NCBI GenBank assembly: GCA_026023565.1
Contig: JAPETS010000020.1
Coordinates: forward strand, 434,001-498,000
Direction: 5' to 3'
DNA length: 64,000 nucleotides
From: Cirrosporium novae-zelandiae
Lineage: Eukaryota
The position numbers were made by a program, and so were the translations under genes. The stretch's first letter is position 1, and each line of letters opens with the position of its first letter. Shown here piece by piece: positions 1,422 to 21,804 of the stretch. The notes under the pieces were generated by a model. It was given only the letters and a program-made list of their open reading frames with translations, searched no databases and was not told the DNA's origin.

Positions 1422-3654
1422 CTTGCTGACGAGAATTGTTTAATTAACATAGTTATAAAGTCGGGCTCAAGTCTATATATAAGGAGCTCCATGGCTCAAG
1501 GCATCCATGGGTAGAGGAATGTGAGGTCATATTAACTCACACAGAAGCCTTCGAGGATTTGGCTGTGTAATGTCTTGCTCGTATTTGCATTTTCAGCGTC
1601 TTACGAAGGCATTCCATGCTGTACAACTGTCAAGAAACTCATGATTGGTCATTTTTGAGGCGTTGAGCTGGTGGATCTAAAACAAGAATTCAACACGTTG
1701 ATTAATTAGTTGATTGATTGATTTATTAAACCGATCCTTATAATTTGTCCATTCAGATATACTATACGAGAACTAGCAATATCATATCGAGGCATGGTTC
1801 AAGGTTGATAGTTTGATGGAGGATTGTTGACCTGGTAGGAAAGGACTGTTTGTTATGTTTGCAATCATATCGAGCTGTGACTTCATGATGGTGTAGAGCT
1901 TGAATCTGACATGTTACAAATCTTGATCTATTCCAAACTACCTAGGTAGATACGTTGTCGTTGTTGCCTGGAAATTCAGCCAAGTGATCGCCAAATACTT
2001 CAGGGCAGACTTCATTAGCAAGGCCATCCATACCGGACTGACGTCCACAACATGGTATTACTCACGTCTCATCCTTTGGGAAACCCTGCACCGAATCCAT
2101 CCGGGATACCACAGTAGCCTAAAATAATGTCGATAGTCGTTATACAAGTGTTGTTCACACCTGAAGTACCTCAATATTGCGACAACAATCCCGCTGTGCT
2201 CACTTGTACCCCTTCACACCGATGTACAGTACGGTACATTGCCGGGGAAGTCGAGAGACCTGGCAGGCCAGAAAAGTAATGACAGCACGCCAAGGACGCG
2301 ATCACTCACTGCAAGATCTTGCACCGTTGACCTCCTTTCTGTTGAAGAAGCGCGATTCAGCCACTTCATTCCAGTGATATTACAGTATATAGAGGTATTT
2401 ATGGTTGCAAATAAGCTGCATCAGACAGTCATCAATGATATCCCTTTCAAAGACATTAATTATACAATCAGTGCTTCCCCCACTCAATGAGTTACCGATT
2501 ATTAGGGATATGAATTCATCGGACACTCAATATTAAAACTCATAATTTCTAATTAGCTAACATGAGGGATATCTCTCGGAACGTAGAAATAGTCTTATGT
2601 CAAACTCACGTTTAATTAGAGCCGCACTAGACCTTAGCCTTGATATGTTTAGTTTGACAAACTCTTTCACAGGAAGGATAGACTATGGTCTCCTCTACTA
2701 ACCTCTGAAACATACTCATTCCCAAGGTAGATGGAATATCTCAAGCAAAGTTCTAGTGGATATTGTCAAGGCACCTATTGGAGCAGTATTTATAGACGGT
2801 GGTTTCTCTGTGGCCAGGGCATGTACGCAAACATTTCTCCTGAATATCCTTATTCAATCCTTGACGTTCGGCCCACCGGTAGTGGTAGACAGTCACGCAA
2901 TACAAATACCTAGAACGCAACAATCGGTATCAAGGTAGAACTATTTATCAACCATCAGGTTCTCAACCAAGCTGTGCTTCTGGAGGCCCTGGCCTATGTG
3001 TCCTGTGAGAGAGATACTTTCACGGAATGTTAATCACAAAGGCGCAACAAGGCTTGCCTCAGGTGCTATCGACAATTGCGCGGGGGTATGGAGAAAAGAC
3101 GTCAGGCGATCTAGGTAAGTGGGTGAAGCGCCAGAGTGTTGAGGATTAAGCTAAATATCTTAACTCTTCAGCCAAAAAGACGTGGTTACCCGGTAGTTAA
3201 GGCGAATAACCTTATTTAGCTATATAAGCTTGCTGCCCGTAACAACTTAAGTCCTTACGCAACACACTGGATTTATGACCATGGCCTAAGGCATGTCTAT
3301 ATGGACAATAATATGCATCATTATCTACTTCTTCCTGCTTTGATTGATTGGCATAGAACCTACATCAAGGCCATTCGCATTTATTCTTATGGCTGTGTAC
3401 GATGAATGCTTCTGTTATCAATAGTCCCAACTAATTCTACAGCCACAAGTCCTTCCCCTCTTTTCCCTCTCACACCTCTATACCACAATAGTAATCATGG
3501 CTCTATTTAGACAAAGCCATCGAGGAAGTAAAAGTTGAATTTTTAAAAGTATTCGGAGACCTTATAATCGCATTATTCTCCCCCAACAATATGTTGTCGC
3601 TCCCCTTCCTATGGCCTCGCCTTGTTGAGAAAAACCCAGTCATCTTCCTACGTT

Positions 3655-4622
3655 ATGTATCATACACTATTTCCTTTTCTAACCATCCTCTTTTTATGCC
3701 TATCCTTTGTCCTCGTATCTTCCGATTCCCCTTGCTATTTCCCTGATGGCAGTTGGAGTTCCGATGATCACCCCTGTTTTCCAAACCAACCACAAAGTTT
3801 CTGCTGCGGCGAAGGCCACAGCTGTATGTCAAATGGTCTGTGCCGATGGCCAGATATATATATGCCTGCACCTCTAGCGTATATAAGAGGAAGTTGTACC
3901 GATCGAACCTGTAGGTCTTTTTGAGGACATTACTTTTCGCCGTTACGTGCTAGAGTTGCTGACGAAAAGCTCCAAAAGGGCTCAGTGAATCATGCTCACA
4001 GCATTGTGCAAATATCCTCCCGGGACTGTGGAATAAAGTCATCCAGTGTTCTACCAATGAATATTGTTGTTCGCCCGATAACGATAACAGCCAGTTCTGT
4101 TGTACCGGGGGCAGTAGTAGCTCATCGGCTTTTATACCAAGCGCTAGTCGTACCATTTTTGACCTCGCCATGGCTACGACGGTTACAGTTATTGGTGTTT
4201 CCTCAACTTCGACTCTAGGCCAGACGGCGAAAACAACTATGATATATCCCAGTAGTTCCGTGGTATCTTCAAAAACATTAACAACTTCTACAACTTCTGC
4301 ATCATTGACGGCCACTCCCAACCCAACCCCCATTGATTCTTCCAGCCGTAGCGGTAGTGCAGATATTGGGATTGGTATCGGCGTGGGACTTGGGGCCGCT
4401 CTGGTCCTCGCATTTTGCGGTTGGCTCTTTTGGCGGAAAAATAGGAATTCTGAAAGACACAGAAAGCAACTGAACAGAAATGAATTGATGTATGGCAGAG
4501 TGTTTGAACAGAGCAGAGGTCAAGAGATGGGTGAGATGGGGTTGGATGATAGAAAGATGATAGGTGTGGATGGAAAAGCAGAGCTAGAAGGAAGAGGGAT
4601 AAGACCGGAGTTGCCTGGGTAA
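3655..4622 (+). CDS. Single-pass membrane protein: signal peptide, Cys-rich ectodomain, Ser/Thr stalk, TM helix, short tail (Mid2-like architecture); intron 3911-3978
   Basis: Hydrophobic N-terminus, then CYFPDG..DHPC..SFCC..CMSNGLC..YIRGSCTD. A GTAGGT..AAG intron with GCTGAC restores W-L-S-E-S-C. S/T-rich run and TM segment IGIGIGVGLGAALVLAFCGWLFW followed by RK. Confidence 0.75.
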
Positions 4623-5298: not shown

Positions 5299-7063
5299 AT
5301 GACGAAACTCATAGAAGTAGGGACTGCCCGAGAATATGCAAATGCAGTCGATCGTCATGCTGCAGTATCTACTGCCGACTCCTTATTTCCCGGTCATAAC
5401 TATGGGAACCTTGCGTCCTACCTATTACAACCTTACCAAATCCGTGCACCAACAATAGCTTCTAATGAAGTCGGTTCAAGCACGATCAAAAACTCTGATA
5501 AATTCGCAAGGCTGTATAACTTAAAGGACCCGGGCCCTGAAAGAGCAAAATATCTTGGGTCTGTTAAAGAACTTATCGATTTACCGGATACCACTAGCTC
5601 TGAGGGATGTCTCGCACAATTACTTTTCCTTTGTGGTCATCCCTCTCCGGAATGGCTCAACGCCTTAGGAGCGAAGTATCGGATTGACCCGGAATACTTT
5701 CAAAGGCATCTAGACTTTAGGTCTACAGTTGGAAGACCCGATTATTTCCCTTTACCCTCATTACCTTGCGCTTTTCCCAATATGATTCGACTACCGTTGA
5801 CATCCATCGGGTGCCGGATGACTAAAGGGAGGACAAGAGATGATATTTCACAAAAGGAGCTTGATGGGCTGAGGAAAGAGACATTGGAAGCTATGAAAAA
5901 ATACTTGGAGAAACTTTCCCAGGGGCGCGAGTCCGAATTAAAGCTAGGCGATTCTATCGTCCGGCATTTTTCGGTGCATGATAATCAGCATTTTTCGTTC
6001 GAACAAGATATCTCTATATATGTGGGAAAATCTCAGAAAGGATGGATAGGTAGGCAACAAACTCATATTCAGCCTTGGACCTCTGGACTGATTTACCGTA
6101 GCAATTGTGTGGCTTGATGTAGGGAGTGATTTGGGCGAGGGACCCGCTGGCCCTTGGCAACCTCAATTTCTACATTCAGATTCCTGGGCTATCAACTACT
6201 TTCCGACTATCCAACACAGATCTCGGATTGCCCTCAAACAACATAGCCGATTTACCCCATCACCGAAACATGATATAGAATCCCCTTCCAAAATCCAACA
6301 AAGCGCATCTCTTCTTCCTCTTGATTACGGGCGGAAGTTAGATGCGGAAATGATGATATGCGATGCTTTCTACCTTCTTAGTGATATCTTTCGATTTGTG
6401 GCCTTTACAGAAGTGCAATTTGTGAATATGCTAGAATCAAAAGCACGAAAAGAGCTTGACCACACAACCCTTGTTCGTCAGGACACTCCGACACTCTCTA
6501 ATCTCCTGTACTATAAGCAGATTTCAGAGCGTCACATCTCGCGACTCCGTGAAATAGTTGATTTTATTGACTCTCGATCCGATCTAGATTGGCCTAAAGC
6601 CTCAAAGCCAAGCCATCAGGAAATAGGGGAATCGACTGCAAAGTCACTCTTGAAGGATTTTCGTTACCTTCTTCTTCGAACAGAATCTGTTGCCACAAAT
6701 TGTGATAGAGGAATGGATATTGTCATGAACAACGTTATGATCAAGGAGTCACAAAAAGCAATTCTCCAGGCCGAAAGAGTAACTAAATTGACACAGCTAG
6801 CCTTTTTCTTTATCCCATTGTCCTTTACAACTTCATTTTTTGGCATGAACTTTACACAATTTGGTAATGGAGCACTTCTTAATGTTTGGGTTTGGTTTGC
6901 AGTATCTGTCCCCATTCTATTAATTTCCTTGGCTTTTATGTTTTGGGACCTAACCACCATTACGCGATTTACAAAATCTCTATCATTACGAAATCAAGCT
7001 ACCACCGATGCCCTTCTTCAGGAAAGAAGTCTTGCGATGCCGAGTTCAACATCCTCAGTCTAA
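5299..7063 (+). CDS. Fungal CorA-like family membrane protein (two C-terminal TM helices, GMN motif); intron ~6050-6101
   Basis: ORFs 5299-6117 and 6107-7063 join through GTAGGC..TAG. N-terminal LGAKYRIDPEYFQRHL and C-terminal VTKLTQLAFFFIPLSFTTSFFGMNF..VWVWFAVSVP are typical of fungal CorA-like proteins. Confidence 0.75.
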
Positions 7064-7112
7064 TCCTGTCTTTGTTACTCTATACCATATTAGAACCCCA
7101 CGGATCCGAGCC

Positions 7113-8748
7113 TCATTTTTCACTTGATCTGTTGCTGATACTTCCCGGTTTCGCTTCTTTGCTCGAGAGCAACAAATAAACTGGGGCAATAAAGAAGGCT
7201 AAATTCACTAACCCCAGGAGACTGTTACCCCAGCCCATCCCTAAGTGGTCATACAATCCTTGCCCTGAAAGTGGCAGCGTCGCACAGGCTACAGCTCTGG
7301 TTACCACACTTGCTGCCATTGCAGAAGCAGACCGAGAAGGGAAAGCCTCCAAGAGATAGAGTTGTGTTGCGAGCTATATCGGACAACATGATTGAATATC
7401 TCAGATTACAAGTTTTCCTGTACTGGCAAGAACGGGTAACACTCACAAGTGTCCCAGACATACCAAATCCAACGACGAATAGGCCTGCAAGCGGCACTAA
7501 CCAGAATGAGTGTTTTTCGATTGTCCAACCATACCAACACAAACCTCCAGACGCCATAGGAATCCCAATCAGTATCGGTGGTAAGCGAAATATAGGACTT
7601 CTCTTTTTATGTTTACCCGTTAGATGTTTGACGAAACGGTCACTAGCGGTACTGAAAACGGCCAGGCACAACAGACTGCCAGTGCTGCTACTCAAATAAG
7701 CGAGACCCGCGTTCCTAGACGAGAAATGGTATTGGTTTTGAAATACGGTGCCCAGGGTGGTATAAATGATGTTGCAGTAGCCGATTAAACAGGCTGCAAA
7801 GACGTAAAGGGCAAAAACGGCAGGGGACGAGAAAAGGATCTTCAGTGGATGCAACCAGGTTTTGACGAGAGATTCACCCAGTTTCTCCTTTGGATGAGAG
7901 ATATGGGGTGGATGAACTTTTTGATTTGCTTCGTCTGACCGCGAGACCCTCCGTTGGAGTAATGTTGGCTGGTGTGTCTCCTGGAGGAACATGAAAGCAC
8001 AAACAGCACAAGCTCCGCTCTTTTGAACTATGAGCCTTGTTCGCTTGACAAATGTGAAGAATCGCAGGCTGTGACTCACAAAGATAGCCACGATCCAAAA
8101 CAGCCACCTCCACCCCACTGCCTGCGTTACTACCCCTCCGACCACAGGCCCGACCAGAGGGCCGAGGATAGGCCCTATTGTGTAGCCAGCCATTGCCTTC
8201 CCCAATTGCTCCTCGACCACTAGGTCGGCAACCATCGCACCCCCAATTGCTATTGGAGCTGCACCTACGCATCCCGCCAGAAAGCGAAATGCCACCAACA
8301 TGTGCAGGTTTGTAGCTAGGGCGCATCCGACTGTGAAAATGAGGAAGAATATTATGCAGAAGCGATACACAATGAGACGGCCATATCGCTCAGAAAGGGG
8401 TGCGAATATAAGAGGTCCCACAATAAACCCAAGTACATATATAGATATTGATAGAGTTGCGAGTGTCTTGTCATGGGTGTGGAGCGAGGCGAGAACAGAT
8501 GGAATGGATGGTGCATACATCATAGATGCTAATGGTCTGTTATTTTAGGTTAATCTAATTCCAGCTGTTTGTTCATTTTAAGTTTGTCAATTAAGATGAC
8601 AGACGTACGTGAGAAATTCGACGAAGCTGATGAAAAATATGATCAAGAATTTGCGCCATGACGTCCAATTTCGAGGATTTGCGGGATTCGAATCCCATCC
8701 ATCAACTTCTTGGATTTCTAGACTGGTTTCGCACTTTGGCGCCGACAT
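7113..8748 (-). CDS. MFS multidrug transporter (DHA1 family), multi-exon
   Basis: Exon 1 from ATG 8748 reads ..WDSNPANPRNWTSWRK. Motif A region GPLIFAPLSERYGR, plus FRFLAG, GPVVGG, GWRWLFW and QETH. Terminal exon AFPSRSASAMAA..LGMGWGNSLLG. Confidence 0.85.
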
Positions 8749-9277
8749 ATCTACGCATTCAAAGTACTGTAAAGTGTTGACTGCAAGTTTGTGCTTTCTG
8801 GAGGACTGTTATGTATGTTACGTCCATCTCACTACCCCTTGCTATTGGAAATGTTTACGCTCCTGTCGCTGCAGAAGCCGCGGTGTGATTTGTGTCAACT
8901 GTGACAGGGTTTGCCGAATTAATAAGTCAGATAAACACTAGACTAACAACTGCATATTGTGTATTCAATTCTATTCGACCGGCTATAACCAAAGCCGTAA
9001 TGTTCATTTCCCCATCAGCGATCATATCTCAAAAGAATCCACACCTGCAAAATCTCCACAATTTCATGCTCATCTAACAAGGGTACGGCTGTCTGATCGC
9101 AAGTCAACATTTGACAAATGAGGTCAATTCTAGTAGTCCATCCTTGCGCCGCCAAAATACTAAACCAAAGCCAATGGTTGTAGGGTTGTGCTGTTCGTCT
9201 TGAAAAGGCATATATCTGATAGCTCTGTATTGGTAGGAATATTTCTTGGATTCAGGCTCTGCTTGTTAATTGAGAGG

Positions 9278-10471
9278 ATGCAGTCGACTAGACATTCACA
9301 ATACCAATATTTTCCTAGTATCAAGACAGTATCAAATGGTGATTCATCAGTTAAGGATGATGGAGAGCTTCAGGCTGCGATGCATTTCCTTACAAGAGAC
9401 CCTCTTTTTGATTCCGAAAAGCCTTATAGCATGCGTTACCCTCCCCAAGGAGATCTTCCACAATCGAATATCAAAAGAGAGAAGCATTTGCTCGAGATAC
9501 ATAATATGCGGCAAAGGCTTGACGATTTGAAATTTGAACAATGCGGTTTTGGAATGATGAATATGGATTCAGATATGAGTTATGATGATTTCAACGACGG
9601 ATCTAAAATCACCTCTGTTTACCTACAAGAGATAGGCGAGGCCATGAAAAGGACACTAAACGCCAAACATGTTTATGTGATAGACTATGCGGTGAGTATT
9701 ATATTGGACAAAGACATTTAAATGTTTTAGTTAATCATATCAGGTCCGTCGTCGTCACTCTGAATTTCCGATATCTACTGGCAAGAACTATAAATACGAC
9801 CAGCCTACGGCTATGGCTCATATTGGTTAGGAAAACACAATGTTACAATACTTCATTCTAATTACTTGCTGTTAGATTTCACTTGTGACGAAGGTCGGAG
9901 AATGCTTCAGGTTCTGTATGGGGACGATGCAGATAAGGTAATTCAGGGTCGCTGGCAAATTATCAAGTACTTATCCACCGTTTACGACATTGAAATCGAT
10001 ACCGAAAATTCTAGCTTACAACCCAACAGTGCATGGCGACCTCTTCGAGGGCCACTCAACGACTGGCCACTTGGCCTTTGCGACGCTCAGTCAGTTGACT
10101 TTGCAAATGATACGATGGCCGGTGACATAGTTTTTCGTGACTGGGCTACTGAAAATATGCAAGTTCGCTATAACCCGATGCAGAAGTGGTACTATCTCCC
10201 AGATCATATACCCTCTGAGGTCTTAATCTTCAAGAGTGCGGATTCCGAAGGTGACGGTGCAAATGGTGAGCTTGAAATCTTTAATCAACACTATCTTAGG
10301 ATACGGTATGCGCTAACCTCAAAAGTCTGTCCTCATGCTGGCTTTTTCAATCCACAAGTCAGAAAACACGAATTACCTCGCGAAAGCATTGACTGCCGGG
10401 CTTTTGTTCTCTATGCTGATTTGGATGAGTATCCTCCCGAGGTTGGGAACCTTTTTCAAGGGCACATGTGA
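9278..10471 (+). CDS. AsaB/CmcJ (GA4-desaturase-like) hydroxylase/desaturase family protein, multi-exon
   Basis: Motifs EKPY, VRRR, AHI-D across an intron, AWRPLRGPLNDWPLGLCDAQS, QKWYYL, EVLIFKSADS, CPHAGF and PRESIDCR. Introns start at ~9692, ~9826, ~9967 and ~10266. Confidence 0.78.
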
Positions 10472-11765
10472 CGAAGACTTCGCATTGGAGTAGCTTGCAG
10501 ATCCTGAACCTGAACAAGGTATATACTAACAGTTGTTGAAGGTATATGCAAATAGGATTATATCTCTGCAATATATCAACTTAGAAATCTTAGCCGAGAA
10601 AGCTTCACTACTAACTCCAGCCTTAGCAATCACTAACAAGACATATAAATATATTATTCAAAATCTTGAAAGGGATAGAACTAAACTAGACAGGTTGTGA
10701 TGGGTTAGGGATACACAATTCCTATACCATCTACAATATATTCGACCTTGAGCTTCCAGAAGTTGATGAAAGCCATAGCTTGAACGGTCTCATTTTCGTA
10801 ACATAGGCAGCTTGAATGACAAATTTGACCGTAGTAAATTCCCCTGCTTCTTCGTCCGGCTATCTTCATTTCTCCCAACAATTCATTACCAACCCGAGAA
10901 GCTGCCGCAGTTTCATGTCTCACTCTGTAGCTACCTCGGACACAGGCCCTGAAATATTCCCATCCAATATGACAGTTTCCCCTTTTAAAAATCCATGCTG
11001 GGTGCCGTTATTCTTAAGACCAATTTCTCCGGATGTTCCAGCTACTCCGGGAGACGCTGCTTTGGCTGGCCATTGTGCCTTCCACGGCTGAGACTTTTGG
11101 ATATTTGTACTCGAAGGCATTGTTGCGATTTATGGATGGGACTTTGTGCTGTCAGAGACTACTCTTCCACGAGAGCTTAGATTCAATGCATACCTTGAAG
11201 AAGACTTTTTCGGTTTCGTAAGATGACTTGTTTGCGGACTACTATCCCTAAGGCTCCTTAGGATATGTCTCCAATTTATGCATAGACAATTGTCATTCCC
11301 TAGGGTAAAGACGCAGAGTTGTGATCTTCTCTTCATTTTAACCCTGCAGTCACACCCAATCCAGCTTGGTTTTGCTGTGCTTATGGAAGGAATATATTCC
11401 TTGGCGAGAGCTCATGTCATTGGGCAAATATCCCTTATCTCTTGCAGCCTCAGCTCGTGCATATCTTACATTCCCAATTTTGTGTTAGTGGCAGTTGCCT
11501 GTTCGCATCAACTACCTTGCGATGCTGGGCTCTGTTATAAATTAACCTTGTATGATCTAAAGCGGGGGTTCACGGGAACTCGGTGATAGAACGCCTGGCT
11601 ATCACAAAGCCTTGGGGCGACTCCCCATAAAGTCTACGCTAAGACTATTGGACTTAGATACCCTGGTTGCATTCTAGTTTCCCTATTCACAGTATTGCAG
11701 CTTGATTTCTTGGATGGTTTCACTATAATATTCCAACTTTTACAACTCTAGCTGTCCTAAAAAGC

Positions 11766-14700
11766 ATGGCCACGCAAAAGATCAAGTCCCCGTCCACACT
11801 GCGAGAGCTCGAATTTCTTACCTATGGGCAAACCGAAACCGAAACCGAGTGAGTCTAACCTTTAATATTGCCCACACATATAGTATTAATATTCACGGTA
11901 CAGCCTTATCCTAATTGCTGGAGTTGGGTCTTGTTCGGTTGAAGAGTGGGGCATCTGCTCGGGGCAATGGTATGAATTTTACACAAAATTACATACTCGT
12001 ATCAGAGTCCTAGCCTTTGAGCACGGGGTATTTTTGGACGAAGCCTTCTCCTGGCAGTTGTTGCTAGATAAAGGTGGTGAACTCCTCAGTGAATTATTCG
12101 AGTTATATGCCTCGGATGACTCTCCCCGACCTATGGTTTTCATGTGCTACAGCTTAGGCGGCATTATACTAAAGCAAGCCATCTGCATCGCCAACATGCA
12201 GCATCACAAATATGCGTCTCTTCTCAATTGCATATCAGGGATAGTTTTCATTGGGGCACCTCATTCTTTGGCTAGCAGTGACGCCCTTGGGGAAAGGGCC
12301 TTATTACTGATTGACTGCTTTCCAAGTGAGCAGTACCATAACAAACAATTTAAGGCTCGCTTAAAAGAGGAGTCCTCGAAGCTAACCAATATCGCAAGTC
12401 GTTTTCAGGATGTCAGTCTACAGGTCGACATTCTGTCGGTATATGAAAGTGAAAAAACCAAAGTTGCAAAGAATCATATCTTTTCTAAGCCTCGAAAGGT
12501 TATCATTATCGATAAAGAAATCAGCTCAACTCATGCACCATTGGAACAATGCGTAGCCCTTCCTATAAGTCATGGACTCCTTTATAAGTTGACACAGGAA
12601 GATGGGAGGCCTAATCAACAAGTCCAGACTTGGCTTGGCTCTGTAATCGAAAGCTCTGTCAACAATATACAAGAGCGAATGCGTTCATACCACATACGCC
12701 ATACACCCAGTCTCACATCTAGCAGCTTCTCATCATTTGCAGCCAAAGAGGTGTTAAGCAAGGACTTGGGAACTGAAGTCACCGGCCAAGGCTCTAGCGA
12801 TGGTCAGTATGGATCTTCGACTTTCGATGCGGAGATGATCCCTATCCTTGATGGATTCTCCCCTCCTAGAAAAAAAGCGAAGCTTCCTTGCTTCATGGTA
12901 GACACATTTGTGAAAAACCGCGAGTTTTTCGGTCGTCAAGATATCATAGAATTATTAGACTCAACGCTACTGCCACCAAGAGATTTACTTGTCTCATCAG
13001 AGCCAAATACTATGAAATGTGTTTCCCTTTGTGGTATGGCTGGACTTGGAAAGACAGAGATTGCCATCGAATATGCCTTCTCCCGGAAAGACAGGTTCGA
13101 TGCTATTTTCTGGGTTAGTGCAGATAACCTTGAAAAGCTGGGGTCAGATTTCTCCCGGATCGCCACAGTCCTAGACCTTGAAGACCCCAATGAACCACAT
13201 AACCAAGTTGTCAATCGAGAATTGGCCAAGGGTTGGCTCTCACATCCTCTAAAATTTTTGGATCAGAACCATGATTCTGTTGGCCAAGCGGAGGCGTCTT
13301 GGTTGATTATATTTGACAACGCCGATGACCCGGACATACTTACAGATTACATCCCAATATTTGACAGCGGCTCACTTCTTATAACTAGTCGGAACCCACT
13401 TTCCAAGACGAATTCCTCACCCACCACTCTAGGAATCGATCTGATACCATTCAAAGAAGAGGAAGCGGCGCTGTTTCTGCAACAGCTTACTCACAAAACC
13501 AATGAAGGTGATATTGCGAAGCAGGTTGCAAATAAATTAGGGGGTCTTCCATTAGCAATATCCCAAATGGCGGGAGTCATACGTCGACAATATCTATCCT
13601 TCCCAGAGTTTCTTGAGCGATACGAGGACGAAGAGGAGAAGGAAGGCCTCCTAAACCTTGAACTCCAGCCCCATAGAGTGACGGCTAGGGGTACAATTGC
13701 ATCTATATGGGCGATCGAACAGCTTTCCAGGCCAGCGAGAAGCTTCCTGGAGGTATTATCTATTTTTGACCCCGATTGTATCCAGGAGGATGTATTGATC
13801 AATAGATTGGAAGTCATTGACACTTTGTCAGAATATCCAAAGAAGAAAGCTGCATACTATGCAGCAAGAATGGAGCTTTTGCAGACCTCATTAATAAAAC
13901 GCAATGAGGAGAGAAAGGAATTTTGGATGCATCGAGTGCTCCAAGATGCAGTCAGAGCTAAAATGGAAGCCCAACATTTATTTAGAGTTTTCTCGGCTGC
14001 AACAAATCTCATTTCAGCAGCATGGCCTCCAGCTTCATTGGAGAAAAGGCACAACACTGATCGCTGGAAAGCCTGTCAAGATTTGTATCCTCATGTTATA
14101 AGCCTTCGGAATATATATATCAAATACTTCACTCGGAAGGATTATAGCCTCAATGCTGAGCTGGCCGCCTTGTTTAGTGAAGCTGGGTGGTGGCAGCACG
14201 AGCGTGGGAATGCGTCTGCAAGTAAATCTCTCTTGCAACATGCAGAAGTAATATGCCACAAACTGCCCCTTGATGGCAGAATTGGTGATATTCTCTGTGA
14301 TATACACTATGGCTTAGGTGCTGTGGCAAACGAGTCTAATGATGCAGAAAGCTGCCTCCGACATAATAAGGAGCTCCTAGCGAAAAGAATGGATGCAGCT
14401 AAAGAGGCTGGCTTGGTCGATATACGTCTTGCAATAGCCCACAACCAAATCGGTACAGGCTGGATGATGGCCAAAGAGTATCAGAAGGCCTCCGAAGCCT
14501 TCAAAAATGCGATTGAAGTCTATCAGAGCCTTCCGGACTTCTCTAAAGGTATGCTATCAGTGCCTCTTGCTAATTTAGGTCTTGCATACTGGCTACAAGG
14601 TGATTTGGACAAGGCTTCAATAACATTAGAGAGGGGGCTAAGAGACCGAGAAGAGTTGCTTGGGGTCATGGATAAGGAATCTTTTCGGTACGTCGATATC

Positions 14701-15171
14701 CTTGATAGGTTCATAGTGAAATTGACTTTTTTCAGGACCGGGAGATTTCTTCATGCACTGGGAAACATACGCGCAGATCAAGGCCAGATGGAAGAAAGCG
14801 AAATCTACCATCAGAAAGCCTTGGCGCAGTATCAGTCAACAATTGGTAACAGCCACCATCGCACGGCAGATGTTTGCCATAGAGTTGCCCAGCATTGCAT
14901 ACGACATGGCGATTTTGATACAGCTCGAATCCTGATCGATCAGGCACTCAAGGTCTGGGGAACCGAGCGATCACTGTATACGCCTGAGATTGCACGCACG
15001 TCATTCCTAAAAGCAAAGCTACTTTATCGAATAGGTGATGAGGAAGAGGCATCGATCTTGGTGCGACAAGCAGTTGCCTTGAGAAACAAGATAGCTCCAA
15101 TTCCTACCAAAGATTACAAGATGTTGACTGAAGAAAGTTTTGATGAACTGGTTACGTTTTGGTCCAGGTAA
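11766..15171 (+). CDS. Fungal NLR-like STAND protein: N-terminal alpha/beta-hydrolase (SesB-like), NB-ARC, TPR repeats; introns 11849-11903 and probably 14688-14735
   Basis: Hydrolase elbow CYSLGGIILK, VFIGAPH, SVYESEKT and LPISH. Walker A GMAGLGKT, Walker B WLIIFDNAD, LITSR, GGLPLAISQ and WMHR. Helical TPR-like repeats to the C-terminus. Confidence 0.88.
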
Positions 15172-15498
15172 TAGAAACTAATTCCTTTGATAAATGAATG
15201 TTTCATGAAGTTCATGCAAATAGGTAATGCTACTCTCTTGATGCATATCAAAGAGAATCAACGCTCAAAGATATGAAAAGTATGTGGAGTGAGAGTCTAA
15301 GGAATATCTCAGTAATTTTAAGCTGATACTCTTTCAGTAAGAAACAACTTCTCCAGTTTCGGATTCCCCCTGTTTATATTCTTTCGTGCTCCTCGCATTC
15401 AAGTTCAATCATTTAGTCTCCTCTACTTGGAAGCTTCTCATTCCCTTCCTCGATAGCAACGGGTAATTTTTCTAAACAGGGACATATTATCTTGCATT

Positions 15499-17571
15499 TT
15501 ACCATATCCTAGAGCCCGTTTTAACTAGAGTGGCCCTCCCGCTACTTTTCAGGAATTTCTGTATAGTATCAAGCAATATCACATCGGAGCCTGGGGAACC
15601 AACCAAATCAACAACGACGGGGAGAAACTCTTCCCGGCCACTGATGCGAGACTCATAAGCCCATTCCCCAATTGGAATGGCAACATCTGGTGATCCTAGT
15701 ATTGGTGGTATAAAGAGATCATCAAACCCACTTTGTGGTGTAGGTTCCCCGGGGGGGATATCTCGATAGTCGGGTTCGACCTTGGAAATCGGAAGGACGA
15801 GAAATGACTCCTTCGCTTCTTGATGCATGACATTGTCGAGAAACCATCGCTTGTACACCTCAAGACGATGCATTCCCTCTTTATACTGAAGGTCGGTTAC
15901 CTGTTCTCCGAGCGTCCAGCGCCAATGGACAAATGAGTTTACGTATGGCTTTTTTTGGTGCTTTTTCCAGTATGATACACGGAAATCATCTGTGCTGTGA
16001 TAAAAATCGCGATAGTACGTGTGGATAACCACGTCCTGCAGGTAATCTCTCACCGGTTGCCCCTGCGCTTCAGAGGGAGGCGATTTATCCCAGAGGGAGG
16101 CAATTGAAACCTTGACGGCATCAGTTCCAAGATAGGATTCAAGGTCATTTACAAAGGAATCAATGAGTTTCATCTGGTGTGGGTTTCCAACTGGGAGATA
16201 GTCTAGAGGATATATTATAGACGGCCGTTTGCTTGGAAATTTATCTCTCAACAGGGTTTTGGATGTGTACCAATGCTGAATCACTCCTTTGAATTTAGTT
16301 AGATCTCTCCCAAAGAGACACGGGGTGTCCCAGGGCAGAAATGTCGGTATCATTCCATCAAGAGATACGGCGTCATGTGTGGGTCGCATTTGGAATACTC
16401 CATTGAACAACGCAGGTCTCCGCCCGCTGCCCGAGGTGTCTGTTCCGATTGCAAAGTCCAACCAGTCATAGGCGGCAACAGCGGCTGCACTTCCACTGCT
16501 ACTACCGGCTGGAGACTGATAGCCGTCACCTCTTGGGTTGAACGGTGCCTGATAATCAACAGCTTCCGTTGGCTCTTCCCTAGAGATCAAAGAGCTGAGT
16601 TTTGTAACCCCAAGCACCTGAGCACCTGCATCCGTCAACATCTGCACGATTGAAGCTGTAGATTCTGAAGGAGGACTGAGATCATAGTATGCACGATTGC
16701 ACAACGATGTTTTGAGACCCTTGAGCCTGTAGAGATCTTTGACGGCTATCCGAAGGCCCTGAAGTGGTTTGTCTTGTCTGCCAAACGTTCGTGGAGGTAC
16801 AGCGACACTAAGGGTCTGGTAGTTCTGTCCCGTAATCCGTAGGTTTTGATAGAGGCCGTCGTCGTCGTCGTCCGATATTGAACTATTATTACCCATTGGA
16901 ACCAGGCTAGCCAGGAAAGCCCCCTGGATATCATCATGAAGCCTAAAGGCACTCCACAACACACCTTCCACCAATACGCACGGTCCGAGTCCGTAATTAT
17001 GACCAGGTATAAATTCATACCAGAGGTTACGTCTCGACTTCAGAAGTTCAATACTCTCAACGGGAAGTGGCGGCTTCTTCTCACCACCCATCGTGACCAG
17101 GGAAGCATCATCATCATCATCATCCACCACCTGAAAAACCACTCCTTCCAGAAACTCTTCCCGAAAAACATCATCATCTCGCATCATCTCTTTCAATTTC
17201 CCATTCAACCACTCCGGACTCAACGTCTCATCATTCTTACACTCTATCACTGTCACCAACGAGGAAGAGCTGGAAAACAGCTCTGCTCCCCCTTTCGCTC
17301 TCACAACCCCATCATACTATATACATATAATACATATATATCAATTAGTAAACAAATAAATTCTGTTTTTTTTTTCAAACGCGATATATAAGTCACAGCC
17401 AAAAAAAAAAGCAAGGTTCTTTGTCAATGTAGAAAAGAGTAAAAAAAATAATTGGGGGGAACCAACTTTTTGAGGGTTACAGGCTGCGTAATTGGACGAT
17501 CCGAGTTTGAAGAGGTAGGTTTGGTTGTGTTTGTGGAATCGTGAGATATTGAGGGTAGGTGGAGATAGCAT
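15499..17571 (-). CDS. Amidase-signature family enzyme (Ser-cisSer-Lys); probable first exon 17571-~17466
   Basis: LRIAVKDL (Lys), PAGSSSGSAAAVA and GTDTSGSGRRPA. The upstream ORF YLFKLGSSNYAA can splice (GTTGGT..TATAG) in frame to YDGVVRAKG. The start is less certain than the family. Confidence 0.83.
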
Positions 17572-18300: not shown

Positions 18301-18330
18301 AGGGTCCAAACATATATATAACCTACGACG

Positions 18331-21300
18331 ATGGAATTTATTAATATTCTTGAAAGGAATTCGAGCAATTTTTCACGCTTAATCAGTCATTTGAATGCCC
18401 AGTCCAACCTCTGTTTGCCAAATGAGGAGATCAGCAGCCCCTCTGACCGTAGAAGTAAGTACGGTGACCTCCCCATAAAGTGTCGCAGCTTGCTTCAGCA
18501 AGGCTTTTTTGGTTGTTGGATTAGTCCTGCAAATGTCATTAGCGAAGTTGAGGGATTGTTTACCATAGATGAAAGTGGAGGCAGGCACTCTATTCTCTCC
18601 ACCGCTCCGTCAGAGATGTTACTCAGTTCCATTGTGGAACTGCTAACTTGTAAGTGTCAAGAAGCAAAAGAAATTGCTTCTTTGCTTGCATCAGGCTATT
18701 TTGATGATGCCTTTGACGATGAAATAACGGATACCGAGGAGGGATTCCAAACAGCTCCTCCATCACCAACCATTGGCGCGGAGACTTTATACGATCCTAG
18801 TCCTGACTTGGTAGAGGAGATAGCCGATATTCATTATCCAAACTTGCTACCACTGAAGAATGAAGAAGTGCCCACGAAGGAAAGAGGTTCGAAAGCTGAA
18901 TCAACAGATGTTCCATACTATCGGGATACCCTAGATGGTGATTTCCATGAAATCCATCAATTACAATCGGTTACTTCAACTACAACTGTGCAGATAGCGT
19001 GTGCAGATTCTGTCACAGAAGGACTTGAGAACCTAGATCTTTCTGCTGGGCACTTCTCAGCCGAGCTCAAGAGGTGCCACAACATCGAACACAACCTGCA
19101 GCTCAAGGGTCCATTCCGGCAGGAGGGGGATCCGAAGGTGACACTTTCCTTTCGCCATCGGTATGAGTTAGAACGGGTTTCGAAATTGTGGAACGTTCCC
19201 CTTCGCTATATTGTGGATGGGCAAAAACTTTCCGATGATTATGACCAGTTTTGGAGATGGCTGACGAGCCACCCAAGACGAAATGGATTTATTCCGTGTC
19301 CAACCACTCTGAATGTTTGGAAGCTCGCTCAAGGGCGATGGAATGAGCCAAAATCGCAAAGATTCGTTGTGCTCACAGGTCAGCTCAAGAATACAAGTTG
19401 TGATGACGGGCATTTTAAACTTGAGCTGAGCCCTCTCAAACTGCAAAGTGGTTGTCGTTTTTTCCGTCGTTTCGGATCTGACCGTTTTATGGCATTAACA
19501 GTCCCATTTCTGGACAACTACTGTAAATGCCCCGAATTTCGCAAACATGTAGCACACTGGCTAGCAAGAGGACAGCACAGACTTCTCGGCAGGGTTTGGA
19601 GGCCATTTCATATCGAGGAGATCCAGAGAAAAGGTCATAAGATCATGTTTTTCGCTGTTGCTGGTGACGATTTTCAGACCTCACCACGACTGCAAATATC
19701 TCCTAGGCTCGAAAAAGAAAGTGAGCATGCGCAGATGTCCGTTGATGCTTTGAGAGAGTGGCATGTACCATGGAAGCAGAACTTTGGCGAATCAGACTGC
19801 AAATTATTCTATCGCATCAAACTAGGACTCTCCAGCACATACGCAACGGCGCAGCTTGAATCTAGTAATATAATCAGGGTTCCGGATAAGGTAGTCGGGA
19901 GCAAAGTTATGAATGACGGGTGTGCAAGGATGTCCAAGAGCCTTGGCAGCATGATCAGGACTTTTCTAGAAATTGAAGGTCCGGTACCAAGCTGTTTCCA
20001 GGCAAGGATCGGAGGAGCAAAAGGAGTTTGGATGGTCGAACAACATGACGCTGTTCATGAAAATTTAAATGAAGAAGTGTGGATTGAAATCTCGCCATCA
20101 CAATTGAAGATCAAACCATACCCCGGCGCAGCCGACAGCCACCCCGACCCGGAACTGTGCCAATTTGAGGTGGTCGGTTGGTCGCAAAGTTTGCGACCAT
20201 CACATCTTAGTGAGCAGCTTTTGGCAGTTTTGGAAGACTGTGGGGTGCCAAGGAAAATATTCGAACAGCTGCTGTATCACAGCATGACATACATCTCCGA
20301 CAGACTCATCGAGGCTGTTCAAAAAAATGATCGAAATTGGTGCAGAGACCTACTCGCACAACTGGGAACCGTAACCGACGAACGTTTCACCGAAAACAAA
20401 TGGCCCGTGAGAGATTTCGACCAAGCGGCATTACTGTTGGAGAGTGGCTTTGAACCGCATTCGTGTTCTTATCTCGTAGATCTACTTAGGCAGTGCTTGA
20501 GCTACAACCTAGACAGTTACATACAGAAACTTCGCGTTCCTATCCAATGTTCCACGTCTGCATATTGTATCGCTGATCCCTATGGCGTCCTCGAATCAAA
20601 TGAAATCTGCTTGTCATTCTCTCAACGGTGGGATACAGGAAATTTCAGCGGGACCTCTCTTGTCAATACTGAAGTATTAGTGGCACGGCATCCAGCGGTG
20701 CGCTCATGCGATATTCAAAAGCGAAAGGCAGTATGGAAACCTGAATTAAAGCACTTCGTTGACGTTGTAATATTCCCAGTCAAAGGATCATTTCCACTGG
20801 CTGATATTCTCTCGGGGGGGGACTACGATGGCGACCGTGTGTGGATTTGTTGGGAGTCTGATATTGTGGATTCATTTATTAACGTGGAACCGCTAGAATG
20901 TGAACAAAATAACGGAGATGTTTACCTCACTCATTGCAAGTCACCGGTGATAGCCCCTCCAATGGAGAGTTTCTGGGTGAAGATGTTTGACTTCTATCTG
21001 GAGAGATCTCAAGTGGGGACCTGCACGCAGATCCATGGAGAGGTATGTCGCTCTTTTGGGATGAGGTCTGGAGCCTCTACACTCATAGCATCTATAATCT
21101 CCAGACTGCTCAGCGGTCAAAAATCCGGTATCACCCTGTCTCCCACAAATCTATCCAGCATCAGAAAAATAGCCAAATCGAATATCGCCCATACCACCAC
21201 TGCAGACTACCTCCGGCAACGTGCAGCAGAAGGTAAGGACCAAATACTGACACGATATCATCAAAATTATAGTTGGACGAGCACGACGAAGGTGGATGAC

Positions 21301-21804
21301 GATATCATGAATGTGTGGCGGGAAATAAATGAACGGGGAGAGCGAGAACTACGATATAAGAATCAACGATTATTGTCCAACGCGCTTAAAGATTTAACAC
21401 AAAGAATTCTGAATATTCAAAAAACAATTTGGACATGTTACCGTAAAGGCCACGGTCGTGAACATTTTATGGCCATTGTCCAGGAGGCTTCTCAAGCAGT
21501 TCAAGACTTGCAACCGAACGATTTCGATCATCCATTGAGTCATACATGGATGAACAGCAAACGTGAATGGAATAGGATCCGTGCAGCCTACATATATTAT
21601 CATAATCGGGGAGACAAATTTGCCTGGTTTACGGTCGGTCGGGTACTTTGTTGGATTAAAGCCGATGGTGGATTTACTTTCCCTATTCAGGCCGACACTT
21701 TATGTTATTTCCGTTTTAGTAGCAGCCATTTCAGACGACTTCAACCCCAGGAGCTACAAGACGAGGAGCTACAAGACGGGGAGCCACAAGACGAGGAGAA
21801 TTAA
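18331..21804 (+). CDS. Cellular RNA-dependent RNA polymerase, QDE-1-like (RNA silencing), single exon
   Basis: Uninterrupted 1157-aa ORF with RFFRRFGSDRF, MNDGC, CFQARIGGAKGVW, SQLK, YCIADPYGVL, VLVARHPA..DIQ and catalytic LSGGDYDGD (DxDGD). Confidence 0.93.
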   Translation: MEFINILERNSSNFSRLISHLNAQSNLCLPNEEISSPSDRRSKYGDLPIKCRSLLQQGFFGCWISPANVISEVEGLFTIDESGGRHSILSTAPSEMLLSSIVELLTCKCQEAKEIASLLASGYFDDAFDDEITDTEEGFQTAPPSPTIGAETLYDPSPDLVEEIADIHYPNLLPLKNEEVPTKERGSKAESTDVPYYRDTLDGDFHEIHQLQSVTSTTTVQIACADSVTEGLENLDLSAGHFSAELKRCHNIEHNLQLKGPFRQEGDPKVTLSFRHRYELERVSKLWNVPLRYIVDGQKLSDDYDQFWRWLTSHPRRNGFIPCPTTLNVWKLAQGRWNEPKSQRFVVLTGQLKNTSCDDGHFKLELSPLKLQSGCRFFRRFGSDRFMALTVPFLDNYCKCPEFRKHVAHWLARGQHRLLGRVWRPFHIEEIQRKGHKIMFFAVAGDDFQTSPRLQISPRLEKESEHAQMSVDALREWHVPWKQNFGESDCKLFYRIKLGLSSTYATAQLESSNIIRVPDKVVGSKVMNDGCARMSKSLGSMIRTFLEIEGPVPSCFQARIGGAKGVWMVEQHDAVHENLNEEVWIEISPSQLKIKPYPGAADSHPDPELCQFEVVGWSQSLRPSHLSEQLLAVLEDCGVPRKIFEQLLYHSMTYISDRLIEAVQKNDRNWCRDLLAQLGTVTDERFTENKWPVRDFDQAALLLESGFEPHSCSYLVDLLRQCLSYNLDSYIQKLRVPIQCSTSAYCIADPYGVLESNEICLSFSQRWDTGNFSGTSLVNTEVLVARHPAVRSCDIQKRKAVWKPELKHFVDVVIFPVKGSFPLADILSGGDYDGDRVWICWESDIVDSFINVEPLECEQNNGDVYLTHCKSPVIAPPMESFWVKMFDFYLERSQVGTCTQIHGEVCRSFGMRSGASTLIASIISRLLSGQKSGITLSPTNLSSIRKIAKSNIAHTTTADYLRQRAAEGKDQILTRYHQNYSWTSTTKVDDDIMNVWREINERGERELRYKNQRLLSNALKDLTQRILNIQKTIWTCYRKGHGREHFMAIVQEASQAVQDLQPNDFDHPLSHTWMNSKREWNRIRAAYIYYHNRGDKFAWFTVGRVLCWIKADGGFTFPIQADTLCYFRFSSSHFRRLQPQELQDEELQDGEPQDEEN
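21748..21798 (+). repeat. 15-nt coding tandem repeat (about 3.4 copies) giving an acidic RdRP tail QELQDEELQDGEPQDEE
   Basis: caggagctacaagac / gaggagctacaagac / ggggagccacaagac / gaggag. Confidence 0.85.

Follow-up and report, generated by a model that had tools for sequence, protein, structure and literature searches.

A predicted four-gene unit centred on an NB-ARC-TPR receptor gene in Cirrosporium novae-zelandiae

Do the closely spaced genes at positions 5,299 to 17,571 of a 64,000-nucleotide stretch of the Cirrosporium novae-zelandiae genome (contig JAPETS010000020.1, positions 434,001 to 498,000; hereafter the window) belong to one system and, if so, which of them? A first-pass annotation of this DNA had proposed an undescribed module of five genes, encoding a CorA-like membrane protein, a major facilitator superfamily (MFS) transporter, an AsaB-like oxidase, a NOD-like receptor (NLR) and an amidase, which would act through a small molecule. 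The DNA of the window is fungal, has short introns and belongs to an assembly of 31.4 Mb; all five genes are real as judged by their gene models, with stop-free spliced frames and GT-AG introns.

The family labels were borne out by Pfam and NCBIfam matches, and the spacings given as 49, ~530 and ~330 bp were measured as 49 bp (between the CorA and MFS stop codons), 529 bp (between the MFS and dioxygenase ATGs) and 327 bp (between the NLR and amidase stop codons). The reported lack of a backbone gene was likewise confirmed, as polyketide synthase, nonribosomal peptide synthetase or terpene domains were found by Pfam in none of the 26 open reading frames (ORFs) scanned. The 1294-bp gap between the dioxygenase and the NLR was absent from that annotation, and it contains a sixth gene, an ORF of 66 amino acids (aa). 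Since such gene spacing is typical for a fungus, comparative evidence was needed as the test. On this evidence, the linkage is beyond chance, and the predicted conserved unit is the NLR, the CmcJ/NvfI-type dioxygenase, the CorA-fold channel and the 66-aa ORF, i.e., four genes and not five (Table 1).

Recurrence of the gene neighbourhood

Four dioxygenase genes were found in this genome by a search with NF041278, and three of them lie within ~5 kb of an NB-ARC-TPR gene: that of the window and those on contigs C36 and C52, whose NLRs are the closest paralogues of the window NLR (~27-30% identity). The fourth, on C96, has no NLR match in the 19 kb around it. With lower-bound counts of at least 23 NB-ARC-type loci or 93 NLR-type loci in total, the chance that two of the three unselected dioxygenases have an NLR neighbour was estimated at P ~4e-4 or 6e-3, respectively, an estimate that clustering of accessory genes would raise. 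Gene order is unlike at each of the three loci. On C36 and C52, the third gene encodes an AmpC-like hydrolase (PF00144 with DUF3471) with intact SxxK and YxN motifs, and close AmpC-like copies stand beside an NLR match in four cases out of four, including the decayed pairs on C43 and C118; two distant relatives do not. No oxygenase was found in the 30 kb around each decayed pair, nor any NLR match in ~20 kb around each of the four other CorA-like loci of the genome. Amine oxidase, MFS and HET genes lie beyond the C52 module. Equal-score matches on two contigs (G000:C32:689 kb and C94:13.6 kb; C35 and C47) probably represent duplicated assembly contigs.

In other fungi, the linkage was examined through 87 NLR homologues, the window's own included. 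NLR and oxygenase have consecutive accessions or tags in six species (Copromyces, Annulohypoxylon moriforme, Cladobotryum, Apiospora rasikravindrae, Chaetomium sp. and C. fimeti) and are merged into one call in five (A. saccharicola, A. marii, Fusarium decemcellulare, F. austroafricanum and Pseudoneurospora), so that NLR-dioxygenase adjacency amounts to 11 named species, 5 unannotated contigs and the 2 further loci of this genome. When named oxygenase matches were used as the starting point, 8 of 28 had an NLR match in the same assembly, and 5 of these 8 were adjacent to it. When named CorA matches were used (a self-fragment being dropped), 8 of 12 lay 1-5 accessions from an NLR match, and one of the 12 lay on a contig equal in size to that of an oxygenase match; in a second sample of 10 further representatives, 6 of them named, 3 of the 6 were linked to an NLR. 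The Peltula CorA, which is the closest to that of the window, lies two tags from the closest NLR, the CorA and NLR of Diplogelasinospora are both on 95,678-bp contigs, and those of Aspergillus mulundensis form a merged call. NLR-CorA linkage was thus found in 13 named species (two merged NLR models counted) and one contig (L089). Full consecutive triads were also observed (KAI1456284-6, KAH6624105-7 and KAK3290455-7).

An oxygenase is fused at the N-terminus of 6 of the 87 NLR models and a CorA-like region at the C-terminus of 2 (P0020 has both); the CorA-like parts of the latter two are 32% and 30% identical to the window protein over >500 aa. True oxygenase-NLR or NLR-CorA fusions were considered and rejected: the junctions resemble merged gene calls with truncated ends and were therefore scored as adjacency only.

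Among 80 metagenome loci, 7 close ones have at least 1.9 kb of flank, and an oxygenase was found in 4 of these 7, once together with a CorA-like gene (L089, 34% identity over 575 aa). A DUF7580 gene lies head-to-head with an NB-ARC NLR in L091, L092 and L164, and oxygenase and small ORF accompany it in two of these three. L164 (contig NYXK01000028.1), which holds an NB-ARC gene with a zinc-finger N-terminus, DUF7580, an oxygenase, a caspase-like gene and a 78-aa ORF, is intron-bearing fungal DNA within a bacterial metagenome-assembled genome and probably a contamination; it was the single locus returned when genome_contigs was scanned with the oxygenase alignment. Regarding a prokaryotic or viral version, the oxygenase scan of viral_contigs gave 0 loci, and neither oxygenase nor CorA was found in 66 more distant, probably bacterial metagenome loci (L096, L098-L162), such seed-based scans being weak for distant relatives.

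Incongruent gene trees had been named as an outcome that would speak against the module, and trees were built for NLR and CorA; they agree. The same 7-member clade was recovered at support 100 in both, and the window is paired with Peltula in both. Diplogelasinospora (Sordariales) falls outside the support-100 Sordariomycete clade in both trees, as does Trichoderma, on long unsure branches. Module members span Sordariomycetes, Lichinomycetes and Dothideomycetes, and presumably also Eurotiomycetes, and the linkage is kept at 27-50% protein identity with order and orientation shuffled.

Several counts weigh against the module, in that linkage is not universal. Oxygenase and NLR match stand apart in 3 of the 8 assemblies mentioned above (Cadophora gregata, Sordaria macrospora and Cercophora scortea), CorA matches had no partner among the listed matches in 3 of 12 and 3 of 6 named cases, and 3 of the 7 flanked metagenome contigs hold neither oxygenase nor CorA. 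With 992 representatives at E<=1e-30, the family of CorA-like proteins is a large one and mostly lies outside the linkage comparison. Pairwise NLR and CorA identities correlate (Mantel rho 0.80, p 1e-4, 15 linked pairs), although the pairs were picked for being linked and kinship inflates rho. A chance neighbourhood of five multicopy genes was nevertheless dropped given the recurrence in this genome, in other fungi and in metagenome contigs. From gene content, linkage, co-inheritance and intact motifs, it is highly probable that the genes form a functional unit.

That the members have no joint function, and represent an accessory block that was transferred horizontally or duplicated as one in NLR-rich regions, is disfavoured and appears very improbable: the patchy distribution, NLR and CorA trees that both depart from the species tree, the decayed copies on C43 and C118 and the ~90 NLR-type loci of this genome would fit it, but linkage persists at the divergence given above despite shuffling, and the catalytic motifs and the 66-aa ORF are conserved while the flanks change.

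Of the five genes proposed, the NLR, dioxygenase and CorA-like genes are neighbours in many fungi, and the unlinked orthologues that the first-pass annotation had held against its own proposal were not what was found for these three. The MFS and amidase genes are unsupported as members and stand outside that outcome. The MFS transporter, which we take to be of the DHA1 type, matches MFS_1 (Pfam, E 4e-44) and TIGR00880 (NCBIfam) and is one of 43 matches in this genome at E<=1e-10. No MFS gene lies within the three consecutive triads, genes beyond the triads being out of view, and one was found in 1 of the 7 flanked metagenome contigs (L092), 6 kb off and at 26% identity. A merged MFS piece was present in 0 of 317 database proteins and an amidase piece in 1 of 317; the Xylaria multiplex CorA model starts with 38 aa resembling the C-terminus of the window amidase (45% identity). 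The window amidase has the K and GSSSGS motifs. Its two paralogues in the genome (45% and 37%) are near no listed NLR match, and L088 contains an amidase of a different subfamily. Both genes are probably local passengers, unproven as members rather than excluded, as no database-wide homologue search was made for either.

Table 1. Locations of the predicted genes in the window and of related loci in the same genome (G000)
Feature	Location	Strand	Details
CorA-fold two-helix membrane channel, 570 aa	5299..7063	+	exons 5299-6049, 6102-7063; PF01544 E 1e-9
MFS, drug:H+ antiporter type, 476 aa	7113..8748	-	exons 8748-8609, 8536-8080, 8019-7447, 7373-7113
CmcJ/NvfI/AsaB-type Fe(II)/2-oxoglutarate dioxygenase, ~322 aa (start codon uncertain)	9278..10471	+	NF041278 E 6e-33
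Unannotated small ORF, 66 aa	10920..11120	-	QPWxxxWPA and HGFxKGExxIxDGN motifs
NLR, 1100 aa	11766..15171	+	exons 11766-11848, 11904-14687, 14736-15171; NB-ARC, DUF7779, TPR
Amidase-signature enzyme	15499..~17571	-	main exon 605 aa, 5' end approximate; PF01425 E 1e-30
Paralogous module C36	G000:C36:103.5-111.9 kb (L021-L022)		AmpC-like hydrolase replaces CorA
Paralogous module C52	G000:C52:520-531 kb (L025-L026)		AmpC-like hydrolase replaces CorA
Decayed hydrolase and NLR pair	G000:C43:99-104 kb (L067)		stops, frameshifts
Decayed hydrolase and NLR pair	G000:C118:272-275.6 kb (L064)		stops, frameshifts

Elsewhere in the window, an RNAi-type RNA-dependent RNA polymerase gene (18322-21804, + strand; PF05183 E 9e-115) lies immediately beyond the amidase. 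Epimerase, spherulin-4, GH114, Agd3 and a large membrane protein were found by Pfam at ~42100-62200, a region that we take to resemble a galactosaminogalactan cluster.

Properties of the small ORF and its partners

The 66-aa ORF is arranged tail-to-tail with the dioxygenase and head-to-head with the NLR. No family was found for it in Pfam, NCBIfam or Atlas, and a single-sequence search gave no second copy in this genome. In L088 and L092, small ORFs with both motifs of the consensus PWxxxW…GFxKGExxIxDG were observed tail-to-tail with the oxygenase, and the motifs are fused onto gene models in F. circinatum, F. decemcellulare, A. marii and the CorA representative P0194. More divergent candidates occur in L089 and in the C36 and C52 modules, each of the latter two containing a divergent 69-72-aa ORF (WAA...PW). 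In a leave-one-out profile test against a background of small ORFs, 8 of 10 candidates ranked first among 2297 sequences, that of C52 by a thin margin. The 78-aa ORF of L164, a locus found from the oxygenase alone, matches the pre-built profile at 36 bits and is also tail-to-tail with the oxygenase. The small ORF thus recurs strongly at 7 further loci, of which one came to light only after the profile had been constructed, and the small protein ranges from 66 to 88 aa. As it accompanies the oxygenase even where the effector is a different one (L092, L164, C36 and C52), it is tied to the enzyme and not to one effector. The small ORF is accordingly proposed as a core member and a candidate modified peptide. 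Whereas a small-molecule product had been proposed for the locus, this conserved ORF, which had been overlooked, points instead to a peptide.

The dioxygenase retains the HxD...H and RESxDxR motifs, as do the C36 and C52 copies, and its main exon passed the NF041278 cut-off (111 bits vs 80). The nearest solved relative is NvfI, whose structures match the homologue P0102 at E 2e-20. In Cladobotryum, two distinct CmcJ-like sequences, P0064 and P0100 (KAK5995287/88), lie by one NLR.

The NLR model of the window is identical to the database model P0001. It begins with an alpha/beta-hydrolase-like domain (CYSLGG), followed by NB-ARC with the Walker A sequence GMAGLGKT, DUF7779 and TPR, so that it shows the N-terminal domain, Walker A-bearing NB-ARC and repeats of a fungal NB-ARC NLR; Walker A is present in 81 of the 87 homologues. 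The best NCBIfam match was the FxSxx-system TPR protein (E 4e-66), which at 224 bits is below the cut-off of 300. The AlphaFold model has a predicted local distance difference test score (pLDDT) of 82, and the top Foldseek match was the STAND-TPR protein 6mfv. Compared with SesB-like NLRs, which have an alpha/beta-hydrolase N-terminus with an intact nucleophile elbow, the hydrolase-like domain has no Pfam match but resembles a DUF676 paralogue; its CYSLGG retains Ser, and His251 is invariant in 26 aligned rows. Among 35 readable hydrolase motifs of the homologues, the nucleophile elbow carries Ser in 25, Gly in 9 and Cys in 1, and in some relatives the hydrolase N-terminus is swapped for other domains. 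Given this variable N-terminus, with Gly at the nucleophile position in 9 of the 35 motifs, the output of the NLR probably lies in its neighbours. No DNA-binding domain was found in the NLR by Pfam. Inspection by eye alone gave no motif common to its N-terminus and a neighbour, whereas amyloid-signalling pairs have a matching motif at the NLR N-terminus and the effector C-terminus.

The CorA-like protein has the fold, the two C-terminal helices and the GxN loop that define the CorA/2TM-GxN type, with the GMN loop retained and the cytoplasmic domain enlarged. The AlphaFold model of P0170 (pLDDT 79), residues 142-703 of which correspond to residues 9-570 of the window protein, shows the full CorA fold (VIA Z 16.3, root-mean-square deviation 6.6, 309 residues aligned to T. 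maritima CorA). Among 181 CorA-like sequences, the loop reads GMN in 111 and SMN in 16. The protein misses the cut-off of housekeeping CorA TIGR00383 (21 bits vs 200.75, exon 2 only), and its nearest Atlas clusters are all ascomycete. As judged from the exchange of the third gene between loci, the CorA-like protein is a predicted module member and a swappable effector, the alternatives being DUF7580 or the AmpC-like hydrolase.

Other CorA-like genes were also noted. A diverged one (L024:4237-6400, - strand; G000:C52 ~509-511 kb), with the loop ALH by eye, lies ~10 kb from the C52 module and was missed by the window-type profile. The models P0248 and P0276 carry an N-terminal region with a trypsin-like GDSG (by eye; no Pfam match), P0297 is likewise N-terminally extended, and CorA-like regions are fused to ankyrin repeats in P0254 and to a DIOX_N dioxygenase in P0278; these joins suggest other possible immune contexts for the channel family. 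Model P0170 itself fuses the CorA gene to part of an upstream gene, at 3568-4622 (+ strand) in the window, for a Cys-rich, Ser/Thr-rich single-pass membrane protein.

Possible modes of action

A role of the module in defence or cell death is likely, judging by NLR biology and by the presence of DUF7580, caspase-like and HET genes among the neighbours. A fuller model, in which a co-inherited, NLR-centred defence or cell-death module of Pezizomycotina is controlled by a peptide, is plausible but somewhat short of probable. In that model, the 66-88-aa protein would be a cytosolic peptide, and the 2-oxoglutarate dioxygenase encoded next to it would oxidise its conserved Pro-Trp and aromatic motifs; the TPR domain would bind this peptide, and NB-ARC would be turned on by the peptide's state of modification or its loss. 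The active NLR would then trigger the third gene product, here a CorA-type channel leaking cations and elsewhere DUF7580 or an AmpC-like hydrolase.

Its most specific form is put forward tentatively: a switch resembling a ribosomally synthesized, post-translationally modified peptide (RiPP), where the dioxygenase-oxidised peptide is the NLR ligand and the NLR gates interchangeable executioners, including a CorA-family channel. Some points tell against the peptide-controlled model. Characterised relatives of the enzyme (NvfI, AsaB and CmcJ) take small molecules, not peptides; the CorA version of the module lacks a peptidase; and in the leave-one-out test the small ORF of L089 ranked 3 and that of C36 ranked 18.

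The small-molecule substrates of known CmcJ/NvfI enzymes, with NvfI being the nearest structure, lend themselves to another explanation based on guard or toxin-antitoxin logic. The small protein would here act unmodified, inhibiting the NLR or channel or serving as a decoy of either, and the oxygenase would be guarded or would turn over a small-molecule messenger; in the latter case, it would parallel NrN or the S-adenosylmethionine (SAM) lyase beside CRISPR CorA. In the available parts of the sources, a guard model is invoked for fungal PLP-1/SEC-9 (PMC12881547), and CRISPR CorA requires a degradative partner enzyme (PMC10600005). This explanation is rather doubtful, as a second-messenger synthase was present in none of the loci read and the small ORF follows the oxygenase and not the effector.

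A biosynthetic or detoxifying cluster, either the small-molecule version of the first-pass annotation or a fungal RiPP pathway, is unlikely. The NLR-like protein would be a ligand-sensing STAND regulator, with maturation by the amidase or AmpC-like enzyme and export by MFS, and the MFS and amidase genes flanking the window module, the amine oxidase and MFS beyond C52, the amidase and GNAT of L088, and the AmpC-like hydrolases, with their catalytic motifs and the place of all four close copies by NLR matches, agree with it. The lack of MFS genes inside the three triads and their scarcity on the flanked contigs, the lack of a DNA-binding domain in the NLR by Pfam, and the alternative neighbours (DUF7580, caspase-like and HET genes) argue against it, as does the peptide itself: the 66-aa ORF has no signal sequence (maximum N-terminal hydropathy 0.33), 0 KR/RR sites and no repeated KR cores. 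Fungal RiPPs of the dikaritin type have a signal peptide, repeated cores with KR sites and a DUF3328 oxidase, and DUF3328 was not found in the Pfam scan of the window.

Relation to known systems and implications

The closest architectural parallel to the proposed peptide-coupled NLR is bacterial. According to the available text of Kaur et al. (2020, PMC7159879), bacterial peptide-processing systems are always accompanied by AP-ATPase-TPR genes, and in the FxSxx-COOH systems, whose role is itself predicted there, a small fast-evolving protein and a modifying enzyme lie beside an NB-ARC/AP-ATPase-TPR gene. The window has the same one-neighbourhood layout of small protein, modifying enzyme and AP-ATPase-TPR gene, in architecture only. 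Its peptide differs in having no FxSxx, RxD or acidic C-terminal motif, the scanned loci contain no zincin/HEXXH or radical-SAM enzyme and the module no vWA-MoxR-VMAP, and here an NvfI-type enzyme and a CorA channel effector are found in a eukaryotic host. The metallopeptidases of Kaur's systems are said to be the alpha-KG-HExxH enzymes. A reference title seen in PMC12912966 calls alpha-KG-HExxH domains beta-hydroxylases.

In type III CRISPR systems, CorA is described, in the accessible part of Chi et al. (2023, PMC10600005), as a ligand-binding gated immune effector requiring a partner enzyme. A CorA transmembrane domain, a large soluble N-terminal part, an enzyme beside it and a sensing locus are shared with the window, but the window has no Cas10, NrN or lyase, and its resemblance to the CorA models of PADLOC extends no further than the membrane helices (13-19 bits). 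No CRISPR CorA entry was among the fold matches listed; kinship is still possible. The module belongs to neither the FxSxx-COOH nor the CRISPR CorA systems.

Among fungi, the module resembles the nwd2/het-S, protease/gasdermin and plp-1/sec-9 pairs, in which, as far as the available text goes, an NLR with a variable N-terminus lies beside its presumed effector (PMC9815663, PMC12881547), but here the NLR is partnered by a CorA channel, an oxygenase and a peptide, with no gasdermin. With CmcJ/NvfI/AsaB metabolite clusters it shares the dioxygenase family and metal triad, while no backbone synthase is nearby and what is conserved around the enzyme is an NLR and a small ORF. In Morchella importuna, mimpvic32, a polymorphic gene of 773 aa and 8 introns, is a CorA-domain candidate incompatibility gene by mapping (PMC8940278), and thus also ties a fungal CorA-domain gene to vegetative incompatibility; no NLR or oxygenase partner is named in the part of its account available, and the likeness is one of description. 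"CorA" as a whole word has 0 occurrences in the fungal-NLR papers surveyed, and such a module was not found in the available text of PMC12258605, PMC9815663 and PMC12881547, the supplementary neighbour tables of the first two being outside its scope. Among the listings and abstract openings covered, some of them dominated by general NLR papers, none connected fungal NLRs with CmcJ/AsaB-like enzymes, with CorA or with a peptide, subscription journals being mostly outside that coverage. The module is conserved and apparently undescribed, and its 66-aa peptide gene is of the type that gene callers miss or merge.

For most fungal NLRs, neither a ligand nor an output is known, and this module supplies a candidate NLR ligand, modifying enzyme and executioner in four short genes. 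The conserved linkage holds even if the mechanism is wrong. If the RiPP-like switch is true, an intruder would be sensed indirectly through a lost or changed peptide modification (depletion of oxygen, iron or 2-oxoglutarate, or proteolysis), and bacterial peptide/AP-ATPase systems as well as CRISPR CorA effectors would have a eukaryotic parallel in the switch. The module would also give a role to two large orphan families, the NLR-linked CmcJ-like oxygenases and the ascomycete CorA-like proteins, and CorA-type immune effectors and peptide-coupled STAND receptors would then reach from bacteria to eukaryotes.

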